From positions 212,550-276,549 of the forward strand of contig JAQUSJ010000001.1 in the NCBI GenBank assembly GCA_028715175.1: 64,000 nucleotides of DNA, in the 5' to 3' direction. This DNA is from Candidatus Daviesbacteria bacterium (GTDB taxonomy: Bacteria; Patescibacteriota; Microgenomatia; Daviesbacterales; UBA10151). How positions within the stretch are numbered: position 1 is the first letter of the stretch; each line of letters opens with the position of its first letter. Of this stretch, positions 3,474 to 62,761 are shown one piece after another. The position numbers and the translations under genes were made by a program. The notes beneath the pieces were generated by a model, which worked only from the letters and a program-made list of their open reading frames with translations, ran no database searches and was not told where the DNA came from.

Positions 3474-4845
3474 GATAATCTTTATTATTCTTTGACGAGT
3501 TTTCTAGGACTTCTTCAAAAAGTTTTTGTAGGATTTCACCAACTTTTGGGCCGGGTTTTAAATTAAGTTCTTTCATTACGTCATTACCATTAACTTTTAA
3601 ATCAGAAATAGTAAATGGTTTTTTGAGAACTTCTTTAATTCTTTTTTGAAACTCTTCCATCCTCCAGGAAACAGCTTTTTGAGTTCCGCCTCCCAAGCGA
3701 TCTCCAATCCGTAATGCTATCATGTCCTCGATGTTTTCTATTCCGACATTTTTAATAAATCTGCGGATAGCAGAATCAGTTTGCCGTTCATCAACTGTAA
3801 ACAAATGCCACCTCACAAGACGATATAATTTGTCAGTTTGTTTATTTGATAAATTAAATCTTTTGGCAATATCTAATACTAATTTGCCGCCAACAACATC
3901 GTGATTGTAAAAAGTAACATTTCCATCAGGTTCTGTTTTAACTGTTTTAGTTTTCCCGATATCATGCAAAAGCGCAGCAAACCTGACTAGTGGATCAGTG
4001 GATGGTGTATGTTTTAAAGTTAATAGGGAGTGTTCTCCAATGTCATAGATCCGGTCGTGCTTTGGTCCTTTTTGGACAATGCCAAAACATTTTTCCAGTT
4101 CCGGTAAGATAATTTGTAATATTCCCGCCTCCCTAAGTTTTATCATACCTATGTAAGGACTGCCTGAAACAAGGATTTTAAATAATTCATCATGTATTCG
4201 CTCAAAGGCGATTTCTTTAAGTAAGGTGGCATTTTCCAAAATTGCAGAATGAGTTTTTGGGTCAATTTCAAATTCCAGCTCTGAAGCTAACCTGATAGCC
4301 CTCATTAGACGCAGAGCATCTTCTTTAAACCTTTTATCAGGTTCTCCAACAGATCTGATTATTTTATTCTTAATATCATCCTGACCGTTAAAAGGGTCAA
4401 CTATATTTATGGATCCCGTTGTACTCAGACACGACTTATCAAGTTCGGGATAACAGTGGAGGGCTATTGCATTAATGGTAAAATCGCGTCTTGCCAGGTC
4501 TTCCTCTATTTGATCTGTCCAGGAAACTTCTACCGGGTGGCGGTGGTCTTTATAAACTCCTTCTTTTCTCATAGTTGTAATCTCGAAAATTCCACCTCCG
4601 AGGTGTTTTGTGTCTTTTGACGGAATTCCTACTGTGCCAAATTTATTATCATAAAATCCATCAGGAAAAAGTTTAAGGATTTCTTCTGGTTTGGCATCAG
4701 TTGTGAAGTCCCAATCAGAAATCCGCCGGCTGGCGGATCCCATCAGAAGATCTCTAACTGCCCCTCCCACAATATAAATTTGGAAATTAGATTGCTGCAA
4801 TTTATTTAAGATATTTTTTACCTCAGTTGGTAGTGTATAATTCAT
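3445..4845 (-). CDS. cca: CCA-adding tRNA nucleotidyltransferase (polyA-polymerase head domain plus HD domain)
   Basis: GGAVRDLLMG...DWDFTT nucleotidyltransferase motifs and an HD motif (LLHDIGK). Confidence 0.8.
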   Translation of the reverse strand: MNYTLPTEVKNILNKLQQSNFQIYIVGGAVRDLLMGSASRRISDWDFTTDAKPEEILKLFPDGFYDNKFGTVGIPSKDTKHLGGGIFEITTMRKEGVYKDHRHPVEVSWTDQIEEDLARRDFTINAIALHCYPELDKSCLSTTGSINIVDPFNGQDDIKNKIIRSVGEPDKRFKEDALRLMRAIRLASELEFEIDPKTHSAILENATLLKEIAFERIHDELFKILVSGSPYIGMIKLREAGILQIILPELEKCFGIVQKGPKHDRIYDIGEHSLLTLKHTPSTDPLVRFAALLHDIGKTKTVKTEPDGNVTFYNHDVVGGKLVLDIAKRFNLSNKQTDKLYRLVRWHLFTVDERQTDSAIRRFIKNVGIENIEDMIALRIGDRLGGGTQKAVSWRMEEFQKRIKEVLKKPFTISDLKVNGNDVMKELNLKPGPKVGEILQKLFEEVLENSSKNNKDYLIQRIQQLH

Positions 4846-4860
4846 GATGTTATTGTACTA

Positions 4861-4873
4861 CACCTCCGAGGTG
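4861..4873. repeat. half copy (CACCTCCGAGGTG) of the dispersed hairpin repeat, located 7 nt upstream of the recJ ATG
   Basis: Identical to the 3' arm plus CA of the full copies at 8280, 39355 and 42163; its GAGGTG could serve as the recJ Shine-Dalgarno. Confidence 0.5.
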
Positions 4874-4880
4874 AAATAGC

Positions 4881-6527
4881 ATGAAGTGGAAAATAGCCCC
4901 CAGGAAATCTGATAATTTAGTCGAGCAACTTTTAATCAACCGTGGTATTAAAACCGAAAAAGAAAAAGAGCAATTTTTCCATCCTAAAATTTCCGACTTT
5001 GCTAGTGATTTACAAATTCCCGGTATCAAAAGGGCCAATAAAAGAATTTTACAAGCAATCGAAAGAGGCGAGTTAATAATAGTTTATGGTGATTATGATG
5101 CGGATGGAATATGCGCCGCGGCTGTTTTATACAAAGGCTTAACTTCAATCGGAGCAAAAGTGCTGCCTTACATTCCACATAGAGAAAAAGAAGGGTATGG
5201 GATATCAAATATAGGACTTCAGTCTGTAAAGAATTCCGGCGCTGTAGTAGTGGTGACAGTTGATAATGGAATTGCGGCAGCAGATCAGGCAAAATTTGCC
5301 AAGAGCTTAGGTTTAGATTTAATAATTACGGATCACCATATTCCTGCCGAGCGGAAAAATAAACCTTTATGGCCGGATGCATATGCAATAATTCATTCAA
5401 CTAAGATGTGCGGAGCGGCAGTTGCCTGGTGTTTAATTAAGGATTTGATCGAAAAAGAGTTAGCTACGGAGTTGTTGCAATTTGTAGCAATTGCGACAAT
5501 TTGTGATCTTATTCCGTTGTTTGATTTAAACAGGGCATTTGTTTTTGAAGGGCTAAAAATTTTAAACCAGACAAAAAATCCGGGATTACTTTCATTGATA
5601 AAGGAATCCGGTATTTCTTTAGGAGAGATAGGATCTTTTGAGGTGGGTTATATAGTCGGTCCGAGGTTAAATGCCATGGGTAGACTAGAGCATGCTATTG
5701 ATTCCCTCAGGCTTCTTTGTACTAAAGATCCGGTTAAAGCAAAAAGATTGGCAAAACTTTTAGCTGACACAAATATCACTCGTCAAAAAATGACCATGGA
5801 AGCACTGGAGCAGGCAAAATTATTGATTGATAAACAAAAAAAGATTCATGTTATCTTTAGCAAAGATTGGTCTGCCGGAATTATTGGTTTAGTAGCCGGC
5901 AGGGTTTGCGAGGAATACTCGCGTCCGGCAATTGCCATATCTGTTGGTGAAGAGATTTCTAAAGGTTCTGCCCGGTCTATTGACGGGATAAATATTATTG
6001 AGTTGATCAGGAAACATTCTGACATTTTAATTGATGCGGGAGGGCATCCTGGCGCAGCCGGTTTTTCTCTTTTAAGCAAACATATTGAAGTGTTTAAGAA
6101 AAGATTAGAGGAAATTGCGATAGCATTACCGGAGGAGAAAAAAGTTTTGGAAATTGATGCAGAAGTTATTAGTAAACAGTTAAATAAAACTTTAATTCAT
6201 GAGTTACAAAAATTTGAGCCCTTTGGATTGGGCAATAGAAGACCAGTTTTTGTAACTAAAAATATGCAGGTTTCTGATATTAGGACAGTGGGGGAAGGAA
6301 AACATTTAAAATTTAAGGTCTCTCCCTCTGTCATCCTGAGCGGAGCGCAGCGAAGCGAAGGATCTAATGCGATTGATGCTATTGCCTTTGGAATGGGAGA
6401 TTGGGTGAATCTCTTAAAATCCGGCCAGATGCTAAACTTGGCATATAATTTAGAGTTGGATACTTATAATGGTAATGATAAAGTGCAATTAAAAGTTAAA
6501 GATATAGGTGTTAATCCTTCGGCGTAA
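4881..6527 (+). CDS. recJ: single-stranded-DNA-specific exonuclease RecJ
   Basis: DHH motifs (YGDYDADGICAAAVL, ITDHH) and DHHA1 region. Confidence 0.85.
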   Translation: MKWKIAPRKSDNLVEQLLINRGIKTEKEKEQFFHPKISDFASDLQIPGIKRANKRILQAIERGELIIVYGDYDADGICAAAVLYKGLTSIGAKVLPYIPHREKEGYGISNIGLQSVKNSGAVVVVTVDNGIAAADQAKFAKSLGLDLIITDHHIPAERKNKPLWPDAYAIIHSTKMCGAAVAWCLIKDLIEKELATELLQFVAIATICDLIPLFDLNRAFVFEGLKILNQTKNPGLLSLIKESGISLGEIGSFEVGYIVGPRLNAMGRLEHAIDSLRLLCTKDPVKAKRLAKLLADTNITRQKMTMEALEQAKLLIDKQKKIHVIFSKDWSAGIIGLVAGRVCEEYSRPAIAISVGEEISKGSARSIDGINIIELIRKHSDILIDAGGHPGAAGFSLLSKHIEVFKKRLEEIAIALPEEKKVLEIDAEVISKQLNKTLIHELQKFEPFGLGNRRPVFVTKNMQVSDIRTVGEGKHLKFKVSPSVILSGAQRSEGSNAIDAIAFGMGDWVNLLKSGQMLNLAYNLELDTYNGNDKVQLKVKDIGVNPSA

Positions 6528-6978: not shown

Positions 6979-7911
6979 TCATTGACCATTGATTGTGCCC
7001 GGATCTCTAGCACCTGCTGGCAACTCGGCTTTTCTGTATGAACCCAGTATTCTAAGTGAGGAACAGTAAGTAGTTTCTAGATCATTTATACCTTGTTTGA
7101 CCGTATCATTTTCAATATGCCCATCTATTGTAACCCAGAAAGCGTATTGTCTCATGATTCCGGTAGGTCGTGAATCTATTTTCGTTAAATTTATGTCGTA
7201 AGAAGCTAAAACCGTAAGGCATCTTGCTAACATTCCCGGACGATTGCTTTCGGGAACGATGAAGACGAGAGCAGTACTATCTTGACCGGTAGGTTTAGTC
7301 TCGCCTCTTCCCAGCATTAAGAAACGAGTAGAGTTGCCTTTCACGTCGCCTATATCTTCTGCAAGGATAGGTACATTGTATATTTGGGCGGCTCTTCTGC
7401 CAGCTATTGCTGCAATTTGTTTATTGTTTCTTGCAAGTTCAACTGCTGCCGTAGTGCTGGAGGACGGCTCTTGTTTTGCTTGGGGATAATTATTTAAAAG
7501 ATAAGTCCTGCATTGAGCTAAAGCTTGAGGATGGGAATGAATTTCGCTTATTTCAAATCCTGGCCATCCTATTAACATATGCTGAATACCTAATATTGTT
7601 TCCCCAAGTATAGTGATACGTCTTGTATGGTTTAGTTCTCTTAAAACCTCTACGACATCTCCTTCGATTGCATTCTCCACCGGAACGACCCCAATGTCAT
7701 AATCGCCTGCTTCTACAGCTTGTACTACTGTTGCATTATAAGGCAAGAAGACAGCATCCATTTCGTCTAGATAATTACCTAACAATTCCCATCTGGCTGC
7801 TTCCGTGTATGTTCCTTCAGGACCTAAACAAGCTACTCTAGGTTTGATTCTACCTTGAGTAAGCTCGATCTTTACCGGATAATTATTTATTAATAATTCG
7901 ATCTTATTCAT
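6979..7911 (-). CDS. pheA: prephenate dehydratase (PDT catalytic domain plus ACT domain, no chorismate mutase domain)
   Basis: ACLGPEGTYTEAA, ESNRPGML and TKIDSRP motifs. Confidence 0.8.
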   Translation of the reverse strand: MNKIELLINNYPVKIELTQGRIKPRVACLGPEGTYTEAARWELLGNYLDEMDAVFLPYNATVVQAVEAGDYDIGVVPVENAIEGDVVEVLRELNHTRRITILGETILGIQHMLIGWPGFEISEIHSHPQALAQCRTYLLNNYPQAKQEPSSSTTAAVELARNNKQIAAIAGRRAAQIYNVPILAEDIGDVKGNSTRFLMLGRGETKPTGQDSTALVFIVPESNRPGMLARCLTVLASYDINLTKIDSRPTGIMRQYAFWVTIDGHIENDTVKQGINDLETTYCSSLRILGSYRKAELPAGARDPGTINGQ

Positions 7912-8117: not shown

Positions 8118-9530
8118 ATGCAGAGTCGCACTTTAATTTTGGATTGTAAGAATAAAATAGGCAAAGAAGTTAAAATTTGCGGCTGGGTACATACCAGACG
8201 AGACCACGGCAAGATTCTATTTTTAGATGTTTTGGATAGATCTGGAATCATTCAGGTTGTAGTATCTCCAGACAGTGTCCACCTCGAAGGAGTCAAAGTC
8301 CACCTTCGAGGTGAAGAGTTGCAGGTGCAACGCTACCTGGAAGGTGGGTTGCATGCAATACATCCGCAAGATGTTGTTTGTATAACTGGGAGAGTAAACA
8401 AACGTCCGGAAAACCTTATTAACAAAAATATTCCTACAGGAGAAATAGAGATTTCAGCAAAAGAAATTGAAGTTTTATCTAAAGCGCAGGAGTTACCTTT
8501 TGATATGGGAGGTAAAGACTTAGATTTACAGCTGCCTACTTTACTTGATTATCGCTCCCTTACTTTGCGCCACCCGAAAGTCAAAGCCATTTTTAAAATT
8601 CAAGAAAGTTTACTAGAGGGATTTAGAAAAGCTGCCAAAGATTTGGGATGCACAGAGATTATAGTGCCGACGATTGTGGCAGGAGCGACAGAAGGCGGTG
8701 CGGAAGTTTTTAGAATAGACTATTTTGAACACAAAGCTTACCTTTCCCAAAGTCCCCAACTTTACAAACAAATGCTGGTTCCGGTATACGAGCGGGTTTT
8801 TACCATAGCCAAGGCTTACCGTGCTGAGCCATCAGTGACGACCAGGCATTTGACTGAAAGCACTCAAATGGATGTTGAGATTGGTTTTGTGGAATTTGAA
8901 GAGTTACTGGATATTTTGGAGAATGCAGCGATTAAGATGTTAAAAATCGCTGAAGAAGAATGTAAAGAGATTTTATCCGAGTTTGGAGTGGAGAAGACTG
9001 CTTTTGGCTCGCCTCGCTCCGCGGGCGGAGCGGGCAAAATTCCCAGGCTTACTTTAAGGGAAGCGCAAGATATTCTCTTAAAAGAATTTGGGCGGGACAA
9101 CAGAAAGGAAAAAGATCTAACGCCGCAGGATGAAGCAGATCTTTGTAAATGGGCAAAGAAAAGTCACGGTAGTGATTTTGTGACGGTGACACATTTTCCC
9201 ACCAATGCCAAACCATTTTACACAATGCCGGATCCGAAAAATCCGGAATATTCCTTAAGTTATGATTTATTATTCAGGGGAGTGGAAATTATGAGCGGCA
9301 GTCAGAGGATTAATGATTATCAACAGTTGGTTGATTCAATCAAATCAAGAGGTATGGATCCAAAATCTTTTGAGATGTATTTGCAGGCTTTTAAATTTGG
9401 TATGCCTCCGGAAGGTGGATTCTCCTTTGGGTTGGAAAGAATTACTATGCATGTTTTGAATTTAGCTAATGTTAGAGAAGCCAGTCTTTTCCCGAGAGAT
9501 ATGGAAAGAGTAGACACCAGGTTGAGATGA
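8118..9530 (+). CDS. aspS: aspartate--tRNA ligase, class IIb archaeal/eukaryotic type (AsnRS not excluded)
   Basis: OB-fold N-terminus (KICGWVHTRRDHGKILF), QSPQLYKQ, class II motifs (AYRAE, GSQR); true start probably the ATG at 8118 (MQSRTLIL...) rather than the ORF-track start at 8076. Confidence 0.75.
   Translation: MQSRTLILDCKNKIGKEVKICGWVHTRRDHGKILFLDVLDRSGIIQVVVSPDSVHLEGVKVHLRGEELQVQRYLEGGLHAIHPQDVVCITGRVNKRPENLINKNIPTGEIEISAKEIEVLSKAQELPFDMGGKDLDLQLPTLLDYRSLTLRHPKVKAIFKIQESLLEGFRKAAKDLGCTEIIVPTIVAGATEGGAEVFRIDYFEHKAYLSQSPQLYKQMLVPVYERVFTIAKAYRAEPSVTTRHLTESTQMDVEIGFVEFEELLDILENAAIKMLKIAEEECKEILSEFGVEKTAFGSPRSAGGAGKIPRLTLREAQDILLKEFGRDNRKEKDLTPQDEADLCKWAKKSHGSDFVTVTHFPTNAKPFYTMPDPKNPEYSLSYDLLFRGVEIMSGSQRINDYQQLVDSIKSRGMDPKSFEMYLQAFKFGMPPEGGFSFGLERITMHVLNLANVREASLFPRDMERVDTRLR
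8280..8313. repeat. dispersed hairpin repeat, copy inside aspS (CACCTCGAAGG-AGTCAAAGTCCA-CCTTCGAGGTG), in frame, encoding ...HLEGVKVHLRGE...
   Basis: 11-bp inverted repeat with 12-nt loop; both arms carry a compensatory change relative to the other copies (G>A paired with C>T). Confidence 0.7.
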
Positions 9531-13319: not shown

Positions 13320-13416
13320 TGCGGGATCGCCCGCCTGCAACGCTATGCCCGCTCGCATCGATATGCGAAGCGTTTCGGGCGAGCGTAGCATTGCGGGCAG
13401 GTCTAACGGTAGGACC
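13320..13416 (+). other. structured GIY-YIG leader containing two degenerate copies of the tRNA-Gln 5' end (13320-13329 TGCGGGATCG; 13392-13416 TGCGGGCAGGTCTAACGGTAGGACC) plus nested GC hairpins
   Basis: 22/26 identity of the second fragment to positions 1-26 of the downstream tRNA-Gln; an extended -10 box (TGGTATAAT) sits at about 13295-13303. Confidence 0.55.
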
Positions 13417-13656
13417 ATGTTTTATACTTATGTTTTAAAAAGCAAAAAGGATGGTAAGCTTTATATTGGATGGAGCGTTGATCTTAAGCATCGTGTTGAA
13501 CAGCATAGTAAAGGTTTAGTAAGAGCCACCAAGGATCGATTACCTATGGAACTCATATATTATGAAGCCTGTTTGAGTGAGAGTAATGCTATTTCCAGAG
13601 AGAAGCAATTAAAAACAGGTTTTGGTAGAGCTTATCTAAAAAGAAGATTAGGTTAA
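13417..13656 (+). CDS. GIY-YIG domain nuclease (small UPF0213-type)
   Basis: YTYVLKS...GKLYIGWSVDLKHRVEQH...E motifs (GIY-YIG); start set at the ATG right after the tRNA-like fragment. Confidence 0.7.
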   Translation: MFYTYVLKSKKDGKLYIGWSVDLKHRVEQHSKGLVRATKDRLPMELIYYEACLSESNAISREKQLKTGFGRAYLKRRLG

Positions 13657-13663
13657 TTAATAA

Positions 13664-13737
13664 TGCGGGATCGTCTAATGGTAGGACAACAGGCTCTGAA
13701 CCTGTTTATCTAGGTCCGACTCCTAGTCCCGCAGCCA
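13664..13737 (+). tRNA. tRNA-Gln (anticodon CUG)
   Basis: Hand-folded cloverleaf: acceptor TGCGGGA/TCCCGCA (U1:A72 as in bacterial tRNA-Gln), D stem GTCT/GGAC, anticodon stem ACAGG/CCTGT with loop CUCUGAA, T arm CTAGG-TCCGACT-CCTAG, discriminator G, encoded CCA. Confidence 0.85.
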
Positions 13738-13773
13738 AGTAGGGCACCCCAAGGTGACCGTACTTTTAAATTC

Positions 13774-14463
13774 ATGAGTAAAGTTAAAGAAATACGTTTT
13801 TGTGTTGGTAGTAAGAATAAAATGTCTTCATTAGTTTGGAAGATGTTTATAAATAACGAAGATGTGTATCTACTTGCAAGACAAATGGGTGGTTCTTGGA
13901 AGATTAGCCTACATAAAAGTGGAATATGTAGAGTTGCATTTAAACAAGAACTAGAAAAAGGTAAGGATAGACTTGTACTAAAATGGGATAAAGTTTATGT
14001 TGAAGATACTATATCTCCAAATATTGCGATTTTAGTTCCCCATGTTGACATAACTAAGGCGTTAAACAAAAATATTGAAAGTAGATTAAATAAAGATATT
14101 TTGTATATTGATTCCCCGTCAAATGATGAGAAAGTAGTTGTTAAAGTTTTTTACACAAAAAATGATGGAGTTGATTTAGAAAGTAAGTTGCCGGCTTCTC
14201 ATAAAAAACTTTTCCAATATGCACTTAAGAATGGTGAGGTAGTTTATTTGATTGCTTGGAAAGAAAAATTACAGGATGCCGAAATAACACAGCTTCGAGA
14301 TCAGGTATCAAAATTCCAAGTAAATGTCACTTCAGAAGAAGCTAAAAGTAAAATAGATACCGTTTTTGCTGTGTGGATAAACGAAGGTACGCAACAAACT
14401 CACCAACAACCTACTATAGTAAACTATCCATTAGGATATGAGCACTTAAAGGTTTCGTTATAA
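13774..14463 (+). CDS. hypothetical protein (no recognisable domain)
   Basis: 229-aa ORF immediately downstream of tRNA-Gln; AT-rich. Confidence 0.5.
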   Translation: MSKVKEIRFCVGSKNKMSSLVWKMFINNEDVYLLARQMGGSWKISLHKSGICRVAFKQELEKGKDRLVLKWDKVYVEDTISPNIAILVPHVDITKALNKNIESRLNKDILYIDSPSNDEKVVVKVFYTKNDGVDLESKLPASHKKLFQYALKNGEVVYLIAWKEKLQDAEITQLRDQVSKFQVNVTSEEAKSKIDTVFAVWINEGTQQTHQQPTIVNYPLGYEHLKVSL

Positions 14464-14642
14464 TGATACAAAGGTTCTAGACCGATACGCTCAGCAAAAG
14501 CTCGGTTCACTGTGCTCTTCCGCAGCCCAAAGAATGAAGGAGGAAATCCTAGTCTTGAGCGGCTGCACACTTTAGGTATCTGTGTATCCAATATAATTTT
14601 AGACTGATGCAAAATTGGATACTTCTGATATAATCCCTAATT

Positions 14643-36947: not shown

Positions 36948-37670
36948 TTAATGTACGACCACGCGGGTACCGGGATTTTCTGCAGTTGCTCTGACAGCAC
37001 CCTGGCCGGATGGAACAGTTGGTCCGGCCCAATCAAAAATTTGGGCAGCAGAGGCAAGAGGAGAGTTAACGCAGCCATGACTCATCGGGTGGCCGAAATT
37101 ATTATGCCAGTAAGCCCCATGAATGGCATAACCCAAGTGAAAGAACATATTATTCGGAACATTAGGCAGGTTGTAGTAAGTGCCCAAGGCTTGCGATCCT
37201 CCTGTCATACTTTGACTTCTGGTTTTATACCAGATATTGAAAGTTCCTCTGGGGGTAGGAGCCCATAGGCCGGTAGAAACCGGGAATTCCATGACTAGCC
37301 TGTTTCCTTCCCAAGCCCTAAGCCGTTGTTCGTCTAAAGATATATCAATCCATTTTTCTTCTCCGGCAGGATTGGTTGTACCCAGTACTGTCTGGTTATT
37401 GTCCTGATTTTGGGCTAGAGATTCTGAGTATGCATAAGCAAGCGATGTTTTAGGATAGTCTATAACTTTGTTGTTATAGGTAGCGGTACTGGCTTCCTCA
37501 TTAAACTTGCCGTCTGATTTGGCAACCGTACTGGCATCGCAGCAGGAGGTGGTTGGGTCGCCGGAAATGTCTAATTTATAAACGATTGTCCGCCTGATTG
37601 ATTGAAAATTAAAAGCAACGAAGAGAGTAACAGCTATTATTAGTAGAAGAGGTATCAGACGGTGCAGCAT
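36948..37670 (-). CDS. L,D-transpeptidase (YkuD domain), membrane-anchored
   Basis: HGAYWHNNFGHPMSHGCVN catalytic His/Cys motif. Confidence 0.75.
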   Translation of the reverse strand: MLHRLIPLLLIIAVTLFVAFNFQSIRRTIVYKLDISGDPTTSCCDASTVAKSDGKFNEEASTATYNNKVIDYPKTSLAYAYSESLAQNQDNNQTVLGTTNPAGEEKWIDISLDEQRLRAWEGNRLVMEFPVSTGLWAPTPRGTFNIWYKTRSQSMTGGSQALGTYYNLPNVPNNMFFHLGYAIHGAYWHNNFGHPMSHGCVNSPLASAAQIFDWAGPTVPSGQGAVRATAENPGTRVVVH

Positions 37671-37765
37671 ATAAAAGTTTTGCGCTTCCGTCTTAGCACA
37701 ATTTAATTGTGAGGCAAAATTGCTCTGGACGTCAAGAGGGAGTTTCGCTTAAGATAGAAAATTAC

Positions 37766-38677
37766 ATGAAAAAACTAGCTATTCCGGTAACTATTTTGAC
37801 TGCTCTCCTTGCAGTTTTGTTTATAATCAGTTCAAGCAAGGAGGCGGAGAATTTAATCTCCCCTCTTGCAAAGGGGACAAGAGTTTTAGGGATAAACCAG
37901 TGGTTTCCGGGAAATACAAATATAGCTCAAGCAGATGCTCCAGGAGTGAGCGCGGAAGCAGTTTTGTTTGTTGATACAAAGACCGGGCAGGTTCTTTTTT
38001 CAAAAAATCCCAATAAAAAATTGCCGATTGCCTCTTTGGTTAAGGTTATGACAGCGCTTGTGGCTTTGGAACACAAGAGTATGGATGATGAATTTTTTGT
38101 TTCCCGGCATGCAGCCGAGACTGAACCTGATAAAATGTTGCTTATTGCCGGAGAAAAATTAACTTTAAGAGAACTTTTGGATGGAGTCTTTTTAATATCG
38201 GCAAATGATGCGGCAGAAGTCTTGAGCGAAGGCACAACGGGAAGCAGGGATGAATTTATCAAGTTGATGAATGATAAGACAGAACAGTTAGGAATGAAAG
38301 AAACTTATTTCGTAAACCCCACCGGATTGGATGAAGATTCCAATAATTCATATTCAACGGTTTATGATTTGGCTATTTTGACGCGATTTCTGATAAGGCA
38401 CTACCCGGAAGTTGTTGATATTTCCAGGACGGAACATATTTATTTACCGAAAACGGAGAATCACCAGGATTATGATATGTATTCCGGGATAAACCTTTTA
38501 ACTTCATATCCGGGGGTTGTGGGTTTTAAAACCGGTTATACCCCGGAGGCAGGGTTGACTTTAATAACTTTGGCAAGGAAAAACGGACATGAGGTGATAG
38601 GGGTACTTTTGGGGTCCGGGGACAGGCGGGATGAGGCAAGAGAAATTTTGGACTATTCGTTTAATAAACTAAAGTGA
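37766..38677 (+). CDS. D-alanyl-D-alanine carboxypeptidase (peptidase S11), second paralogue
   Basis: ASLVKVMTAL (SxxK) and SANDAA motifs; start at MKKLAIPV... with N-terminal TM/signal. Confidence 0.75.
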   Translation: MKKLAIPVTILTALLAVLFIISSSKEAENLISPLAKGTRVLGINQWFPGNTNIAQADAPGVSAEAVLFVDTKTGQVLFSKNPNKKLPIASLVKVMTALVALEHKSMDDEFFVSRHAAETEPDKMLLIAGEKLTLRELLDGVFLISANDAAEVLSEGTTGSRDEFIKLMNDKTEQLGMKETYFVNPTGLDEDSNNSYSTVYDLAILTRFLIRHYPEVVDISRTEHIYLPKTENHQDYDMYSGINLLTSYPGVVGFKTGYTPEAGLTLITLARKNGHEVIGVLLGSGDRRDEAREILDYSFNKLK

Positions 38678-38853
38678 GTGGAAAAAGTTTTGGGGAAGGG
38701 GTATGCTGAGGGTATGATTGTAAAAGTTAAGGAAGGTTTTAGGGTGGTGGCGGAGAGTGGGAGAAATATGGGAACTTATTCAACCAAAGAACAGGCAGAG
38801 AAAAGGCTTAGACAAATTGAAATGTTTAAACACATGAGGAAAGGATAGAATTT

Positions 38854-39120
38854 ATGTTAGGATTTAGCTGGAAAAGATTTTTGATTACTTTGGGGTTAAG
38901 TGTGTTGGTGTGGGTAGTGAGTGGTTTTACTCAAGCTTTGATCGGATTTCCGAATTACTTTACAATTTTCCATACATGTAGTTTAACTGGTTACCCTATT
39001 GCTTTGTGTATATCTAGTAACGATCAGGCTAAAGTAGCTTTGATATCTTTTGTAAATATTATCCTGTGGTTTTGGGTTATCCATTTATTTTGGGGATTGT
39101 TTCAGAAACGTGGCAAGTAA
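38854..39120 (+). CDS. hypothetical small membrane protein
   Basis: 88-aa hydrophobic ORF; 3' end overlaps the convergent large gene. Confidence 0.35.
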   Translation: MLGFSWKRFLITLGLSVLVWVVSGFTQALIGFPNYFTIFHTCSLTGYPIALCISSNDQAKVALISFVNIILWFWVIHLFWGLFQKRGK

Positions 39121-42078
39121 ACCAAAAGAGGCTAAGGTTATTATGCCTCCGGAAACTATCAATAAACCGCCAAGAAATTCTTCCGCTGGCTTTTCATCAT
39201 TTTTATTGGAGATTAAATTTTTCTGTTCTTCCAGGACTTTGCTGACATTGATTTGATCGGAAATATGGTTGGGGTTTTGGAAGGTAATTCCCAAGACGTC
39301 CGGCGTAGACAAGATGGAGTTTGATGATTGATTTGTGGTTTCTCTCTTGGAGTTCACCTCGGAGGAGTCAGAGTCCACCTCCGAGGTGCTAACTGTGTTG
39401 GAGGTAGAATTTGATGAAGTACCAGAGGAGATGATTGAAGTGGGGGTTTGTGTAGGAGTTGGGATGAGAGTAGGAGACGGGGACACAGCAATTTCTATAG
39501 TGATAGATTGGGGGATTTCTTCGTTACCCAAGTTATCAATTGATTTGATTTGGATAGTGGTTGTTCCCGGATTAGAAATAGTGAACGGCCCGGTATATGT
39601 CTGTACTGTTTGACCATTATCTAAGCTATATTCAATCCTTAGTATTCCTGATTCAGTATCGCTTCCGGTTAAAGTTATAGTAACTGGTCCAGTATAAACA
39701 CCTGAAGAATCTTTAGTACCGGAAATTTGAATATTGGTAACGGGCGGTGTTTGGTCTAATGCTGCAGAACCGGTAGTTTCGCTGGTAGGATTAATGGGGA
39801 TATTTATTTCGCTTGACGAATCAGGATAAAAATTAAGCGAAGGGGAAGTATCTAAAGCAGGATCAAGAGTAAATTCTACTTTGCCAACTTGAGGAATAGC
39901 AATGTCTTTATAAATTGTGGTTTTGGATATTTTATCTTGTTTGTAGGTCCTTTTTTTGAGGCTAGTAGTTTTAGAGTTATTGGACGGATTTTTACGAGTT
40001 GTTTTTACTTTTACTTTTGCAGCTTTCTTTTTAACAAAAGCGTGTTTGGTATTGCCGGAAGTGGTACAAGAGACATCCGGAATATTTTCTTCTATTTCTC
40101 CTTTGTCATTTAAACCGCAGTGGCGGTTTTGATCATCGTATAAATCTAATTCTCCATCATCTAAGGAAATTTGTTCGCCTTCCAGAACAATTTTTTCGTC
40201 TTTTACTTCAACTGGTAAGGAATTATCATCATTCAAAATTGCTTTGACGGTTTGCATGGCTGTTCCATTGCTGGAAACTAGATCACCATGCTCTTGCTCT
40301 ACATAATAAATTTTGGTTGCACCTGAGATATCAATACTGTCGTTTTTAAGTGAAGCGCTGTACAGGGGGACTGTACCATCGCCATTAACAAAAACTTCGT
40401 CTCTTTTGGGTATTAAATTAATTGGCCAGGTTACCCACCAAGTTTCGTGGATTTGGCCTAAGGTGGATTGACTAGAGCCAACTATTTCGTAAACCTTTAC
40501 ATCATTAGTCTGATTAAACAATGAATCTTGTAAGGTATGAAATTCTTCCCCAATATTAAATGCTGTCATATTATGCCCTAGATTAGATAGAAGTGTTTTT
40601 GTTTGATTAAAATTTAATGCCCCGATTTCATTATTATTATCAATATCTCTATCATCTTTGTATGGATAAGAAATTGTATTATCTGTATTGGTATAGAAAT
40701 CGAAATATTTTGAAGAGGGTAGTAATTCAAATATGCTTGGTAAATTTTGAGAAGTATCTTTAGTTTCGCTGGGTGGAATACCGAGTTTAAATAATCTAAA
40801 ATCATAGCCTAGCCATGATCCATATCTTAAGGTTTTGAGACTATCTACTGCTCCTAAATGTGGAACTCCCAGTTCTATCAATTTATTGACCTTAGCAGCT
40901 TTTACTGAGTCTGAAATATAATACCTTGCTACCAGGCCTCCCATAGAGTGGACTACCAGATTAACTTGAGATTGACCGGAAGCTATTTTGGCGGTTTCAA
41001 TGAGATTGTCTAAACTGTCTTTAGTGTTTCTGACATCTTTTCTCCAATCATATGGAAAGGTAAAGAAATTTTTACCTTTCTCGTACCCCATTCCGGTAAA
41101 AAACGAATCAATATCAGAATACCCAAAAGAAGTTAAGTCTCCTGTTAAACTTAAAGCAGCCTCTGGGGTTTGCCCATCGGTTTTTAACCGTAAAATATCA
41201 AAATAATCATCATCTCCCAGTTCCGCAGCCTTATCCTGATTTACCCAAATCTTTTCATTGCTGGAATAAGCATGAGAATATGTTCCGCCATGGCCGTCTT
41301 GAGCAGACCAAATAATATCCTGAGATGCCTTTATCTCTGACCCGCCAATTCCCGGAATAAAAATTACCGGTAATCTTGGAGGTGGAGGTGGAGGCGAAGT
41401 GTTACTCAAGATAAAATATAAATCATCTTTAGTGCTGGAAAATACATTGCAACCAGAATTTGAAGTTTGAGAATTCCAGATATATTGAGAAGCGTTACAG
41501 AATCCGTTATCAAAAGCATATCTTAAGCCTCCGCCGCTAAATAAATCAGATCCCCCATGTCCTCCCGGACCATAAGCAGCGCTTGTAAATAATATTTTAC
41601 CGCTGCCCGCGTTACCATTATTGGCATTGGTTATAAATATTAAGTACCGGTGTCCAGGGATGAAATTATAATTCCGGCAGGAAAAATCAATGGTAACATC
41701 TTCGTATCCGATTGGGACGCCAGTTGTTGTAAAAGTTAAACCGTCTAATGGGTCATTATGGTTAGTTCCAGGACAGCCAATTATATATGAATTATTATTA
41801 TCCTTGTCGTAGATACGGGTGTTTCTGGTGGTAAAATCAAATTGATTTAGATTGGTCCGGGAAGTACTAACTCTGAACGTGAAAGAGGATGCGGTGCCGG
41901 ATAAATTATTTCCTAATTCTTGTAAAGCCTCCCAAACAGTTAGTGGATCGCTCCAGGTTTGAGTTTGTTCCGCTACAGAAACAGCAGAGATATTAGAAGT
42001 TGAGGCCACAAAAAGTCCTGCTACAAAAATAAGCCGTATATATTGGCGAAATGGCAGTTTTATATTCACTTTTAACAC
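39085..42078 (-). CDS. large surface protein: signal peptide, lipase/acyltransferase-like alpha/beta-hydrolase domain (GIGGSEI...LVVHSMGGLVARYY), Ig-like domain, S/T-rich linker, C-terminal TM anchor
   Basis: GxSxG nucleophile elbow (HSMGG) of PGAP1/LCAT-like lipases; C-terminal hydrophobic stretch GGLLIVSGGIITLASFGLLATFL plus KQSPK. Confidence 0.6.
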   Translation of the reverse strand: MLKVNIKLPFRQYIRLIFVAGLFVASTSNISAVSVAEQTQTWSDPLTVWEALQELGNNLSGTASSFTFRVSTSRTNLNQFDFTTRNTRIYDKDNNNSYIIGCPGTNHNDPLDGLTFTTTGVPIGYEDVTIDFSCRNYNFIPGHRYLIFITNANNGNAGSGKILFTSAAYGPGGHGGSDLFSGGGLRYAFDNGFCNASQYIWNSQTSNSGCNVFSSTKDDLYFILSNTSPPPPPPRLPVIFIPGIGGSEIKASQDIIWSAQDGHGGTYSHAYSSNEKIWVNQDKAAELGDDDYFDILRLKTDGQTPEAALSLTGDLTSFGYSDIDSFFTGMGYEKGKNFFTFPYDWRKDVRNTKDSLDNLIETAKIASGQSQVNLVVHSMGGLVARYYISDSVKAAKVNKLIELGVPHLGAVDSLKTLRYGSWLGYDFRLFKLGIPPSETKDTSQNLPSIFELLPSSKYFDFYTNTDNTISYPYKDDRDIDNNNEIGALNFNQTKTLLSNLGHNMTAFNIGEEFHTLQDSLFNQTNDVKVYEIVGSSQSTLGQIHETWWVTWPINLIPKRDEVFVNGDGTVPLYSASLKNDSIDISGATKIYYVEQEHGDLVSSNGTAMQTVKAILNDDNSLPVEVKDEKIVLEGEQISLDDGELDLYDDQNRHCGLNDKGEIEENIPDVSCTTSGNTKHAFVKKKAAKVKVKTTRKNPSNNSKTTSLKKRTYKQDKISKTTIYKDIAIPQVGKVEFTLDPALDTSPSLNFYPDSSSEINIPINPTSETTGSAALDQTPPVTNIQISGTKDSSGVYTGPVTITLTGSDTESGILRIEYSLDNGQTVQTYTGPFTISNPGTTTIQIKSIDNLGNEEIPQSITIEIAVSPSPTLIPTPTQTPTSIISSGTSSNSTSNTVSTSEVDSDSSEVNSKRETTNQSSNSILSTPDVLGITFQNPNHISDQINVSKVLEEQKNLISNKNDEKPAEEFLGGLLIVSGGIITLASFGLLATFLKQSPK
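39355..39388. repeat. dispersed hairpin repeat copy inside the lipase-like gene (CACCTCGGAGG-AGTCAGAGTCCA-CCTCCGAGGTG), in frame (…STSEVDSDSSEV… on the minus strand)
   Basis: Near-identical to the copy at 42163. Confidence 0.7.
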
Positions 42079-42162: not shown

Positions 42163-42196
42163 CACCTCGGAGGAGTCAAAGCCCACCTCCGAGGTG
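42163..42196. repeat. dispersed hairpin repeat copy, intergenic, abutting the ppiB -10 box (GAGGTG-TATAAT)
   Basis: CACCTCGGAGG-AGTCAAAGCCCA-CCTCCGAGGTG followed by TATAAT at about 42198 and the ppiB ATG at 42210. Confidence 0.7.
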
Positions 42197-46105: not shown

Positions 46106-46135
46106 GCTTTCCACCCCAAGGGCACAAAAATATCT

Positions 46136-46177
46136 AAATATCCGCAGGTGTCAATACAAATCCACCCCAAGGGTGGA
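46136..46177. repeat. 42-bp direct repeat, left copy (AAATATCCGCAGGTGTCAATACAAATCCACCCCAAGGGTGGA)
   Basis: Direct reading. Confidence 0.8.
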
Positions 46178-46190
46178 TACGGCTGTCAGT

Positions 46191-46841
46191 CTAGTCTTCA
46201 ACATCTAATAGTTGGTGTTTTATTAATTCCAATTTCTGGGCATAATCAACTTGGTCTAGAACAAATCGCTGATAGTGTTTGGATGATTTGAAGAGACATA
46301 GGATAGCTTCTTTATTACAAATTCCGTCGGTATCATTCTCAATGTATTCCCTATAAGAAGACCAGCGATATTGATTTAGATCTTTTACCAAAAATGAAGC
46401 AATTGGATTTAAATGGATGTAACGGGAAGCATGGCTTAATTGCTCATCAGATTCTATAAGTACTGCCTTAAATTCTCCTTGCAGCAGAGGACCAACACGG
46501 TTATATTTTACATTGTAATATTTAGTATAACTGTTGCTTAGCTTGCTAATAAATTCTGTAATTCCACCATCTTTTAACTGTTTTATTAGGAAATGAAAAT
46601 GATTTGACATGAGGCAATAACAGATTATTTCAACTATTTTTTTGCTTGAATCAGGTTTGAAAATTGAATAAGCGAGAAATTTAGAAAGTTTTGGCTTGGG
46701 TCCTGCAAGCTGGTAGTAACACATTGTTTTAATGAGTCGTGAATAATCCCAACTTTTTTCAAAAATACTTCTTTTTTCTACACCACGATTGTAAATGTGG
46801 TAATATTGCCCGTTTACAAATGGAAAAATTCTAGAAGGCAT
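46191..46841 (-). CDS. REP-associated tyrosine transposase (RAYT) / IS200-like HUH Y1 transposase
   Basis: HUH motif (MSNHFHFLI) and C-terminal catalytic Tyr motif (SHASRYIHLNPI). Confidence 0.7.
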   Translation of the reverse strand: MPSRIFPFVNGQYYHIYNRGVEKRSIFEKSWDYSRLIKTMCYYQLAGPKPKLSKFLAYSIFKPDSSKKIVEIICYCLMSNHFHFLIKQLKDGGITEFISKLSNSYTKYYNVKYNRVGPLLQGEFKAVLIESDEQLSHASRYIHLNPIASFLVKDLNQYRWSSYREYIENDTDGICNKEAILCLFKSSKHYQRFVLDQVDYAQKLELIKHQLLDVED

Positions 46842-46859
46842 CTGAAGCTAGCATAGCTT

Positions 46860-46901
46860 AAATATCCGCAGGTGTCAATACCAATCCACCCCAAGGGTGG
46901 A
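46860..46901. repeat. 42-bp direct repeat, right copy (one mismatch versus the left copy)
   Basis: Direct reading. Confidence 0.8.
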
Positions 46902-61702: not shown

Positions 61703-62761
61703 CTATATTCCTTGTCTTTGGCGGATGAGATCAGCTGCAGAAGTTGCAGACGGAGTGCCTCCTACTTGCCCAAAGCTTGCTGAACCTGTAGCAGTTGAGG
61801 GAGAAGGTTGCGCAGAAGTTGTGGCAATTGGTAGAGTGGGTTTAACTTGAGTTGTTTGCGGCGTGGTCGTTGCCGGCAAACTTGTTGTCCCCTTAGACGG
61901 TTGGCCAATGCCAAGTATAAAATATGCGGAAGCGCCTATTACTAAGATTAGCAGTCCCCCTGCTCCTACACCAAGCAGCCATTTTGGTATACCTTTGCGA
62001 CTTTCAACAGAAAGCGTTGATACTTCCGGGTTTGTAGTTGGGCTTGCGGGAGATGTAACTAATGTTTCAGGCGCAGATTGAACCAAATCTTGCTGCGGGT
62101 TATTGGTTATTAGATGAGAAAGATCTGTCGGAGCAGCTTCCTGGTTATTCATCCAGCTTGGCTGTGAGGGATTTGCAGGTGTTTCGCCCCATGGATTGTC
62201 TAGCGGTGAAGTAGCAGGAGACGGTTCATTGATGCCGCCGATAGGGTTAGCAGCCGGAGGAGTGAAAGTGGGAATTGATTCCGGTTGAGTTGGAGCTGGT
62301 ATCGGTGGTGTTGGAGTTTGCGGCTGTGGAATTGGTTCCGGTTCGCTCGGAACTGGAGGGGTCCAGGTAGAGGTTTGCGGGTTTGACCACGGGTTGGATA
62401 CTGCTGGTTCCGGTAGTACTGTAGGTTGGGTCGGCGGCTGGACTGGGGATGGAGGAGTCCAAACTGAGCTAAGATCAGGTCCGGCGCTTACTGATGCAGG
62501 CGGGCTAGCGCCCGGACTGGTTTGAGTTGTATCTTGAGCCCATGGAGAAAGAGGAGCTTGAGCGGGGCCTGGTTCCATAAAGGGTGTAGCAGGTTCTGAA
62601 ACTGGAGGCCAACTTGGTATCGGAGATGGTGGTGGAGCTGGTGTCTGGTTTGGTTCAACAATTGGTTGCGGTTGGGTGGGGGTTGGTTCCGGTTCGCTCG
62701 GAGCTGGTATCGGTGTCGGATTTAGGTTAGTAGGTGAATTTTGGTTATTAGGGTTATCCAT
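61703..62761 (-). CDS. Pro/Thr/Ser-rich low-complexity protein with a single internal TM segment
   Basis: 352-aa ORF; internally repeated PEPEP.P.QP blocks; TM (LLGVGAGGLLILVIGASAYFIL). Confidence 0.45.
   Translation of the reverse strand: MDNPNNQNSPTNLNPTPIPAPSEPEPTPTQPQPIVEPNQTPAPPPSPIPSWPPVSEPATPFMEPGPAQAPLSPWAQDTTQTSPGASPPASVSAGPDLSSVWTPPSPVQPPTQPTVLPEPAVSNPWSNPQTSTWTPPVPSEPEPIPQPQTPTPPIPAPTQPESIPTFTPPAANPIGGINEPSPATSPLDNPWGETPANPSQPSWMNNQEAAPTDLSHLITNNPQQDLVQSAPETLVTSPASPTTNPEVSTLSVESRKGIPKWLLGVGAGGLLILVIGASAYFILGIGQPSKGTTSLPATTTPQTTQVKPTLPIATTSAQPSPSTATGSASFGQVGGTPSATSAADLIRQRQGI

Follow-up and report, generated by a model that had tools for sequence, protein, structure and literature searches.

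The aspS gene of a Candidatus Daviesbacteria bacterium carries, in frame, a 34-nucleotide (nt) hairpin repeat with relatives in further genomes of the Candidate Phyla Radiation (CPR). It was analysed in a stretch of 64,000 nt (assembly GCA_028715175.1, contig JAQUSJ010000001.1, positions 212,550 to 276,549 of the forward strand), hereafter the window, whose own numbering is used below. The aspS hairpin is probably a mini-REPIN, a non-autonomous element propagated as a single-stranded DNA (ssDNA) hairpin by RAYT-like Y1 transposases (REP, repetitive extragenic palindrome; REPIN, REP doublet forming a hairpin; RAYT, REP-associated tyrosine transposase). The observations that carry this reading are a repeat family with conserved pairing, insertion polymorphisms at orthologous sites, in-frame residence in genes, a RAYT-like gene in the same window and REPIN-type palindromes flanking its sister genes.

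A hairpin repeat family and its pairing

The window was searched with the pattern CACCTCGGAGG-N12-CCTCCGAGGTG, tolerating up to 3 mismatches, and 100 shuffled windows served as control. Three 34-nt doublets were found, one with 2 mismatches (8280-8313) and two with 0 mismatches each (39355-39388 and 42163-42196). None of the 100 shuffled windows matched and the chance expectation was 0. The hairpin family that a first-pass annotation had claimed for this DNA is thus real. The loop AGTCARAGYCCA is common to all three doublets, the full 34-nt sequence at 8280-8313 is CACCTCGAAGGAGTCAAAGTCCACCTTCGAGGTG, and each doublet was predicted to fold as ssDNA into an 11-bp stem (-12 to -14 kcal/mol, z about -4). 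The 64 kb hold 3 doublets and 5 perfect 13-mers compared with 0.00-0.05 expected; for the perfect CACCT-NNN-AGGTG units, 5 were found against an expectation of 0.01. Two of the three doublets and one of the two singlets are intragenic. The repeat features of the window are the following (ORF, open reading frame; PPIase, peptidyl-prolyl isomerase).

8280-8313, plus strand: 34-nt doublet in aspS, arms CACCTCGAAGG and CCTTCGAGGTG, loop AGTCAAAGTCCA, translated as HLEGVKVHLRGE
8278-8346, plus strand: whole aspS insertion, 69 nt or 23 codons, with a TC tag (8278-8279), the 34-nt doublet and then a 46-nt hairpin (8301-8346)
39355-39388, plus strand: 34-nt doublet in the linker of an LCAT-like ORF, loop AGTCAGAGTCCA, antisense reading TSEVDSDSSEV
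42163-42196, plus strand: intergenic 34-nt doublet, between the divergent LCAT-like ORF and PPIase gene, loop AGTCAAAGCCCA
4593-4605, no strand assigned: 13-nt singlet CACCTCCGAGGTG in the gene of the CCA-adding enzyme, reading HLGG
4861-4873, no strand assigned: 13-nt singlet CACCTCCGAGGTG between cca and recJ, its GAGGTG 7 nt upstream of the recJ ATG

Four copies had been claimed earlier. Those at 8280, 39355 and 42163 were recovered, whereas the supposed half copy at 4861 is a complete 13-nt palindromic unit. The singlet at 4593, the third arm in aspS and the translation of the 39355 copy were additional; this copy lies in frame in an LCAT-like ORF of 997 aa (39085-42078, minus strand), within its linker rich in Ser and Thr.

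The element consists of two inverted 13-nt mini-palindromes, CACCT-NNN-AGGTG (5-bp mini-stem, 3-nt loop), and an 8-nt spacer. An arm-unbiased metagenome scan, anchored on the loop and the three inner pairs, returned at least 91 distinct elements (36 distinct sequences). The filter of at least 6 paired positions out of 8 free ones slightly favours pairing, and the distribution is clearly bimodal: 8 of 8 free stem positions are paired in 73 elements, 7 of 8 in 15 and 6 of 8 in 3, compared with 0-5 in chance-like matches. Across the 91 elements listed, 97% of the stem cells are paired. Double-sided stem changes numbered 45 versus 14.2 in shuffles and the covariation score was 0.33 versus 0.115; both observed values were reached by 0 of 500 shuffles, and slid controls collapsed. 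Pairing is therefore conserved family-wide, in agreement with the selection on secondary structure that had been proposed from the aspS copy.

Stem variation is concentrated at positions 5-8 and defines subfamilies, namely CCG/CGG (24 of the 91 elements listed), CGA/TCG (22), CGG/CCG (8), TTCC/GGAA (7), TGGA/TCCA (5) and others. The two mismatches of the aspS copy, G8A and the pairing C-to-T, correspond to the second commonest subfamily (22/91). The first-pass annotation had read them as compensatory mutations; the hairpin is indeed kept, whereas local compensation in situ has to be given up, because the same state is shared by 22 elements. Positions 6-8 are the triloops of the inverted 13-nt units, are reverse complements of one another and so appear as compensated pairs in the long hairpin. 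The variants CACCC...GGGTG and GGGGG/CCCCC (locus L003; loci are cited by L numbers) keep the long hairpin while the mini-stem is weakened, which argues that pairing in the long hairpin has an importance of its own.

Oriented by the loop, the elements carry an asymmetric 5' tag, with T at -2 in 71% and a pyrimidine (Y) at -1 in 90%, regardless of the frame or strand of the host gene. Tag and hairpin together measure 36 nt, or 12 codons, and the 37-, 40-, 43- and 49-nt classes would likewise become multiples of three (3n) with two extra bases; T at -2 was present in 13 of the 19 elements of the 49-nt class. Five of the six reading frames, as read from the sequence, are open and the sixth has a TGA. 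No target-site duplication beyond chance was found for k = 1-4 among the 91 elements listed, and the approximately 15 single mismatches, judged by eye, showed no clear bias between G-T and A-C. Transposable elements of the miniature inverted-repeat type (MITEs) have terminal inverted repeats of 15-30 bp, a length of 70-300 bp and a target-site duplication; this class was rejected, as the arms measure 11-13 nt and the whole element 34-49 nt, with no duplication. From the description as a REP/MITE-like mobile sequence tolerated in coding regions, the MITE label was consequently dropped, and the REP-like part was retained in view of the insertion and the RAYT-like gene described below.

An exact-arm scan, with one genome per species, gave at least 117 loci. 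The matches listed came mostly from Microgenomates (Davies-, Curtiss-, Roizman-, Beckwith-, Woese-, Gottesman- and Levybacteria), Saccharibacteria, Berkelbacteria and the 'Patescibacteria group'. Elements of 34 nt (AGTCAAAGCCCA), 36, 37 (TGAAAAATTCTCACA), 40, 43, 45 and 49 nt were distinguished, each in both loop orientations, and in the exact-arm set the central arm base is nearly always complementary between the arms. The arm start-to-start spacing peaks at 18, 21, 24, 30 and 36 nt and is a multiple of 3 in 86 of the 122 spacings among the matches listed. Element density is about one per 8-20 kb. Viral contigs scanned for the element pattern gave 0 matches, an Rfam scan of the window found no family for the element (only two tRNAs reached the gathering score), and a literature search for the element sequence found no paper.

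Other matches came from metagenome-assembled genomes (MAGs) titled 'uncultured Gammaproteobacteria/Pseudomonadales' (L012, L016, L035, L045, L054 and others), of 35-45% GC and CPR-like content. The flank of L035 is the same as that of Curtissbacteria L004, and L054 aligns to 36949-41755 of the window; judging by these sequences, the labels look wrong. The arms CACCTCSGAGG/CCTCSGAGGTG also form short-loop, multi-copy, REP-like hairpins in unrelated non-CPR MAGs, assigned to Calditrichia (L032, L044, L053, L106), Anaerolineales (L062, L063, L069, L108, L119), Saprospiraceae/Lewinellaceae (L026, L047, L057, L109) and Rubrobacter (L015, L028, L084, L095, L096). The copies in Calditrichia and most of those in Anaerolineales have only short ORFs across them and look extragenic; those in Saprospiraceae/Lewinellaceae have long ORFs across them.

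In-frame residence and turnover at orthologous sites

The aspS doublet was confirmed to be in frame (ORF 8076/8115-9530) and reads HLEGVKVHLRGE. A third, degenerate arm, TACCTGGAAGGTG, lies at 8334-8346 and pairs with 8301-8311 as a second hairpin that shares the middle arm. The loop between the conserved ...IQVV and QDVV... motifs was compared in 100 AspRS orthologues in which it could be parsed. This loop measures 35 aa in the window protein versus 11 aa in empty orthologues; its length is 11 aa in 64 of the 100 and 10-13 aa in 76. In 24 of the 100 the loop is longer and contains element-type peptides, in two different frames: HLEGVKAHLRG in orthologues P0006, P0008 and P0017, and TSEESKPTSEV or TSKESEPTFEV in P0009, P0065, P0071 and P0100. 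This alignment identifies the aspS segment as inserted into a permissive loop, because about three quarters of the AspRS orthologues are without it and the rest carry it in two frames; an equivalent peptide common to all orthologues, which would have spoken against an insertion, was not found. In the N-terminal OB-fold domain, the insertion site falls between two strands. In an AlphaFold model of AspRS that is mediocre overall (mean pLDDT 61), the insert (residues 52-80) lies between strand 45-50 and strand 87-96 at pLDDT <50, and this hints at a disordered surface loop. The AspRS homologues point to a Candidatus Daviesbacteria host (CPR, Microgenomates); the closest one (assembly GCA_028712705.1) is 93% identical, and a look-up of the identical AspRS sequence found no record.

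The same gene contains a second, unrelated in-frame palindromic insert at 9006-9032 (27 nt, GC-rich, peptide GSPRSAGGA, stem CGCTCCGC/GCGGAGCG), of which the window holds no other copy. It is missing from the 93%-identical orthologue, and variants occur at the same site in about 16 of 120 more distant orthologues.

Residence in genes is the rule for the family. Long ORFs (150 aa or more) enclose at least 69 of the 91 elements, or at least 76%, and both orientations occur; the exact-arm set is alike. The 44 sense elements are read in the TSEES frame (23), the HLxG frame (15) or the PRR frame (6), and all 25 antisense elements in the TSEVGFDSSEV frame. That the peptides themselves are selected, or that the similarity is due to chance, is scarcely credible: HLxGVKAHLxG does recur in several AspRS orthologues, as such selection would have it, but the same DNA is used in at least four combinations of frame and orientation that give unrelated peptides, intergenic copies exist and chance predicts no copies at all. 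The loop sequence is conserved in sense (44) and antisense (25) orientation to the host gene. The RNA-level role that the first-pass annotation had offered as an alternative is therefore not favoured, since a function of the sense RNA is difficult to reconcile with a loop that is the same in both transcriptional orientations.

Comparison of orthologous sites showed that the elements come and go. Over 21 kb, locus L001 shares 93-95% identity with the window. Its cca site is occupied by a 40-nt doublet, that of the window by a singlet, and the difference of 27 nt equals the spacer plus one arm, as is to be found if singlets are decayed remnants of doublets. The cca loop was further compared in Daviesbacteria-like orthologues, between GTVG[IV] and EITTMRKEG. 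It is empty in L002, L207 and L082, contains an antisense 34-nt doublet of differing stem subfamilies in L003, L066, L216 and L156, and contains a 49-nt doublet in L042. In L054, a three-arm composite occupies the linker of the LCAT-like ORF, the 42163 copy is absent from the syntenic locus L254, the singlet upstream of recJ is absent from L002 and L003, and the 21 kb of L002 are free of elements. The elements thus undergo gain, loss and exchange, yet hardly differ in sequence even though the loop residues around them diverge.

This pattern bears on the explanation that the hairpin is a host-beneficial DNA or RNA signal, such as a site bound by a protein of the nucleoid, of repair or of uptake, a hairpin that stabilises mRNA or makes translation pause, or a means of Shine-Dalgarno sequestering. 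Such a signal would account for the very high identity across CPR phyla, for persistence at orthologous sites while the surrounding loop residues diverge, for the use of the same arms in extragenic REP-like repeats of unrelated phyla and for the singlet at 4861, which gives GAGGTG 7 nt before the recJ start. On the other hand, the element is missing from about three quarters of the AspRS orthologues and from all 21 kb of the L002 locus, the loop is unchanged in both transcriptional orientations (against a sense-RNA role), stem subfamilies such as TTCC/GGAA destroy the GGAGG core, one element per 8-20 kb is low for an uptake signal, and Rfam has no match. We consider a host-beneficial signal quite doubtful.

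Two specific forms of it were tried and rejected. A 13-bp palindrome acting as the site of a dimeric protein or as a DNA-uptake sequence does not fit subfamilies that keep arm pairing and often break the self-palindrome, nor the low density. A Shine-Dalgarno/anti-Shine-Dalgarno hairpin (arms CACCTCC and GGAGGTG) does not fit either, as the motif is lost in TTCC/GGAA-type subfamilies and most copies lie a long way from any start codon; among the copies, only the 4861 singlet is at Shine-Dalgarno distance. This singlet may be a repeat remnant that supplies the recJ ribosome-binding site. In the element-free L002 and L003, the region upstream of recJ is shorter and has no motif comparable to Shine-Dalgarno.

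Further differences between the window and L001 were noted. L001 has GC-rich inserts at 6180-6223 (44 nt, cca) and 7386-7463 (78 nt or 26 codons, recJ) that the window is without, so several kinds of short in-frame insert turn over between genomes that are 93-95% identical. Conversely, at 13320-14491 the window has two extra blocks around a tRNA gene (13664-13734). The first (13320-13663, 344 nt) contains a long GC-rich hairpin and a 103-aa GIY-YIG ORF (13345-13656) and abuts the tRNA gene; the second (13732-14491, 760 nt) contains a 229-aa ORF without Pfam match. Taken together, the two blocks resemble a further small mobile unit sitting at a tRNA gene. At 62268-62715, repeats with a 21-nt period (GGTTCCGGTTCGCTCGGAGCTGG-like) in a Pro/Thr-rich ORF (61703-62761) are an ordinary low-complexity coding repeat.

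A RAYT-like transposase and the spread of the elements

The first-pass annotation had suggested a search for a cognate RAYT elsewhere in the genome, and a RAYT-like Y1 transposase is encoded in the same window.

46191-46841, minus strand: RAYT-like Y1/HUH transposase gene, 216 aa, Pfam PF01797, HUH motif NHFHFLIKQ, catalytic-Tyr motif SRYIHLNP
46135-46177, plus strand: 43-nt repeat beside the transposase gene, with the mini-hairpin TCCACCC-CAA-GGGTGGA and a TTGACACCTGCGGATATTTA promoter-like box
46859-46901, plus strand: second copy of the 43-nt repeat, 98% identical, on the opposite side of the transposase gene

The protein matches Pfam PF01797 (Y1_Tnp) with 28.9 bits (cut-off 23), and its sole NCBIfam match is REP_Tyr_transpos (REP-associated tyrosine transposase; E 6e-13, below the equivalog cut-off). 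A single-sequence search of the PDB with the transposase gave nothing significant; a profile search reached ISDra2 TnpA and E. coli TnpA-REP. For its AlphaFold model (pLDDT 85, pTM 0.83), the best fold match was 4ER8, a complex of TnpA-REP with a REP hairpin (E 1.3e-6, target TM 0.74), ahead of the IS608 and ISDra2 transposases.

A partial extra copy of the 43-nt repeat lies at 46110-46126. The gene is neighboured by a CobA-like gene and Lon on one side and by ribonucleotide reductase (RNR), NrdR and PPIase genes on the other. Orthologues that are 69-98% identical occupy the same syntenic position, with the same flanks, in several Daviesbacteria (L254-L256); RNR is directly next in L254 and L256, and two inserted ORFs lie between in L255. 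This synteny with the same flanks suggests, as far as the compared sequences go, a vertically inherited RAYT rather than a hopping insertion sequence (IS). To the closest relative, the transposase is 98% conserved versus 93% for AspRS, and a single-locus, syntenic gene more conserved than an essential synthetase would also suit the host-beneficial signal discussed above. The window-type transposase has more than 4,700 homologues, many of them on contigs of about 1 kb.

The link between enzyme and element comes from sister genes. By tblastn, transposase homologues (38-43% identity) were found in eight loci that had been fetched only for carrying the element, and each of them has its own short palindrome (loop of about 3 nt) on both sides. 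In the L045 subfamily (more than 4,500 homologues, mostly CPR), the flanks are (TT)CCACCT-CTA-AGGTGG(AA), that is, the 13-mer of the family with another triloop. CACCT-CTA-AGGTG flanks were found on the sister genes of L045, L241, L244 and L250. Moreover, the L250 gene is preceded by a 37-nt doublet, CACCTCTAAGGTG-TCTGCAGATTT-CACCTTAGAGGTG, whose spacer is identical to that of the dispersed L071 element CACCTCCGAGGTG-TCTGCAGATTT-CACCTCGGAGGTG; behind the gene comes a singlet, and another doublet occurs at a distance of 1.1 kb. By analogy, the flanks of the sister genes are the REPtron/REPIN arrangement described for Proteobacteria (PMC3116915, PMC3733652).

According to the mini-REPIN interpretation, a RAYT-like HUH/Y1 tyrosine transposase, either the window enzyme or a paralogue, would recognise the ssDNA hairpin and copy the element in trans through an ssDNA intermediate. 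An element landing in a gene-dense CPR genome would be translated as a short hydrophilic loop (HLxG...HLxG or TSE...TSEV), and selection would filter the elements to stop-free multiples of three that persist where the protein tolerates the loop, the encoded peptides being presumably neutral. The singlets at 4593 and 4861 would be remnants left after loss of one arm and the spacer between near-identical arms.

Several points weigh against propagation by RAYT-like transposases. No RAYT-like gene with exact CACCT-CSG-AGGTG flanks was found, the homologues checked having CTA/CCA- or TCCACCC-type flanks. The flanks of the window gene and of its orthologues in Daviesbacteria carry another hairpin, TCCACCC-TTG-GGGTGGA, which is not dispersed in the window and shares only the TC-CACC...GGTG foot with the dispersed elements, and the fetched loci showed no obvious gene bracketed by two elements. 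No target consensus beyond T-Y was found, positions -3 and beyond being unconstrained. IS200/IS605-type ssDNA transposition shows a strong strand bias; the orientation of the elements follows local GC skew only weakly (40:23, p = 0.04). Part of the covariation would be automatic if doublets arise by inverted duplication. Near-identical elements occur across phyla and persist at orthologous loops with different classes, and this identity and persistence could result from host-level selection or gene conversion instead of transposition. Finally, the unpaired GTAG or CGTC tag that classical REP super-families carry at one end (PMC3733652) is absent here, where the 5' flank is T-Y only.

Several of these points suit a selfish palindrome that spreads without a RAYT, by another nuclease (GIY-YIG), by template switching or hairpin-primed copying, or by transformation and recombination, the nearby Y1 gene being a coincidence. 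The different hairpins at the window Y1 gene, the weak strand bias and the missing target-site duplication would be expected from it. The same genomes hold unrelated in-frame GC-rich palindromic inserts as well as the GIY-YIG/hairpin insertion, GIY-YIG genes are common, and element classes replace each other at the same loop as in cassette-like conversion. However, sister Y1 genes are flanked by the same 13-nt design, the L250 doublet shares its spacer with a dispersed element, constancy of the loop and stem foot beside a middle that varies freely fits a hairpin-binding protein, and no GIY-YIG gene was seen adjoining the elements. Spread without a RAYT is possible, but we hold it to be unlikely.

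A further reading accepts the partnership and changes its meaning. Mini-REPINs and the syntenic RAYT-like gene would form an ancient, vertically inherited CPR partnership in which the repeats are maintained in essential genes for a DNA-level function. Upkeep at the same protein loops across phyla would then be due to selection or to RAYT- or recombination-driven homogenisation, and the function, such as one in replication or repair, in the structure of the chromosome or in the uptake of DNA, would go beyond mere tolerance. This too appears rather unlikely, and we retain the mini-REPIN as a tolerated, mobile element as the probable interpretation.

Relation to known repeat systems

The literature search found no report linking RAYTs or such repeats with CPR. 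If confirmed, the mini-REPIN interpretation would extend REPIN/RAYT biology to the Candidate Phyla Radiation in the smallest known format. It would show that a selfish or commensal repeat can persist in genomes nearly free of intergenic space as a stop-free 3n surface loop, even in aspS, cca and recJ, and such elements would account for much of the puzzling length variation of conserved CPR proteins. They could be used as strain-typing markers, as a map of insertion-tolerant loops in essential enzymes and as a compact pair of hairpin and enzyme for biochemistry. The findings are relevant to REPIN/RAYT biology, CPR genome evolution and the insertion tolerance of proteins, and overturn no principle.

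Cyanobacterial very small dispersed repeats and the GC clusters or 'byps' of yeast mitochondria are mobile, hairpin-capable repeats of about 20-50 nt that can lie in coding sequence. Their sequences and hosts are unrelated to those described here; byps are skipped by the ribosome, whereas the present elements are open in frame, 3n and presumably translated.

Rickettsia palindromic elements (RPEs) are likewise in-frame palindromic inserts in functional genes, including housekeeping genes, to which they add short peptides. RPE-1 elements measure about 100-150 bp, in contrast to the 34-49 nt found in CPR hosts, where different classes recur at the same protein loop. No transposase is known for RPEs, nor are they known to be related in sequence to the present elements; the two are set apart by size and host. 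Intragenic, in-frame palindromic repeats have been described for the REPs of Opitutus terrae and for R. conorii (PMC3733652).

The TnpA transposases of IS200/IS605 elements (IS608, ISDra2) and their palindrome-only derivatives belong to the same superfamily, PF01797 (fold matches 2A6M and 2XM3), and share ssDNA hairpin substrates and the lack of target duplication. They differ in having distinct left and right ends, where a single symmetric hairpin is found here, and in being multi-copy, while the present gene is syntenic at a single locus and the strand bias of the elements is weak.

The REPIN-RAYT systems of Pseudomonas fluorescens and E. coli (PMC3116915, PMC2817692, PMC3733652) differ in format and host. 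The unit measures 13 nt and the doublets 34-49 nt, compared with REPs of approximately 20-40 nt and REPINs of approximately 70-110 nt; at least 76% of the present copies are intragenic, in frame and of 3n-tuned length, whereas classical REPs are extragenic; and the host belongs to the CPR instead of the Proteobacteria. The definition of REPINs comprises inverted doublets in which compensatory changes are frequent, singlets that are their remnants and a 5' tail that is asymmetric (PMC3116915). The present family agrees in each of these features, with inverted doublets that form a long hairpin, compensatory variation, remnant singlets and an asymmetric 5' end, and also in a Y1/HUH transposase at a fixed locus, whose closest solved relative is 4ER8 and whose sister genes are flanked by such units.

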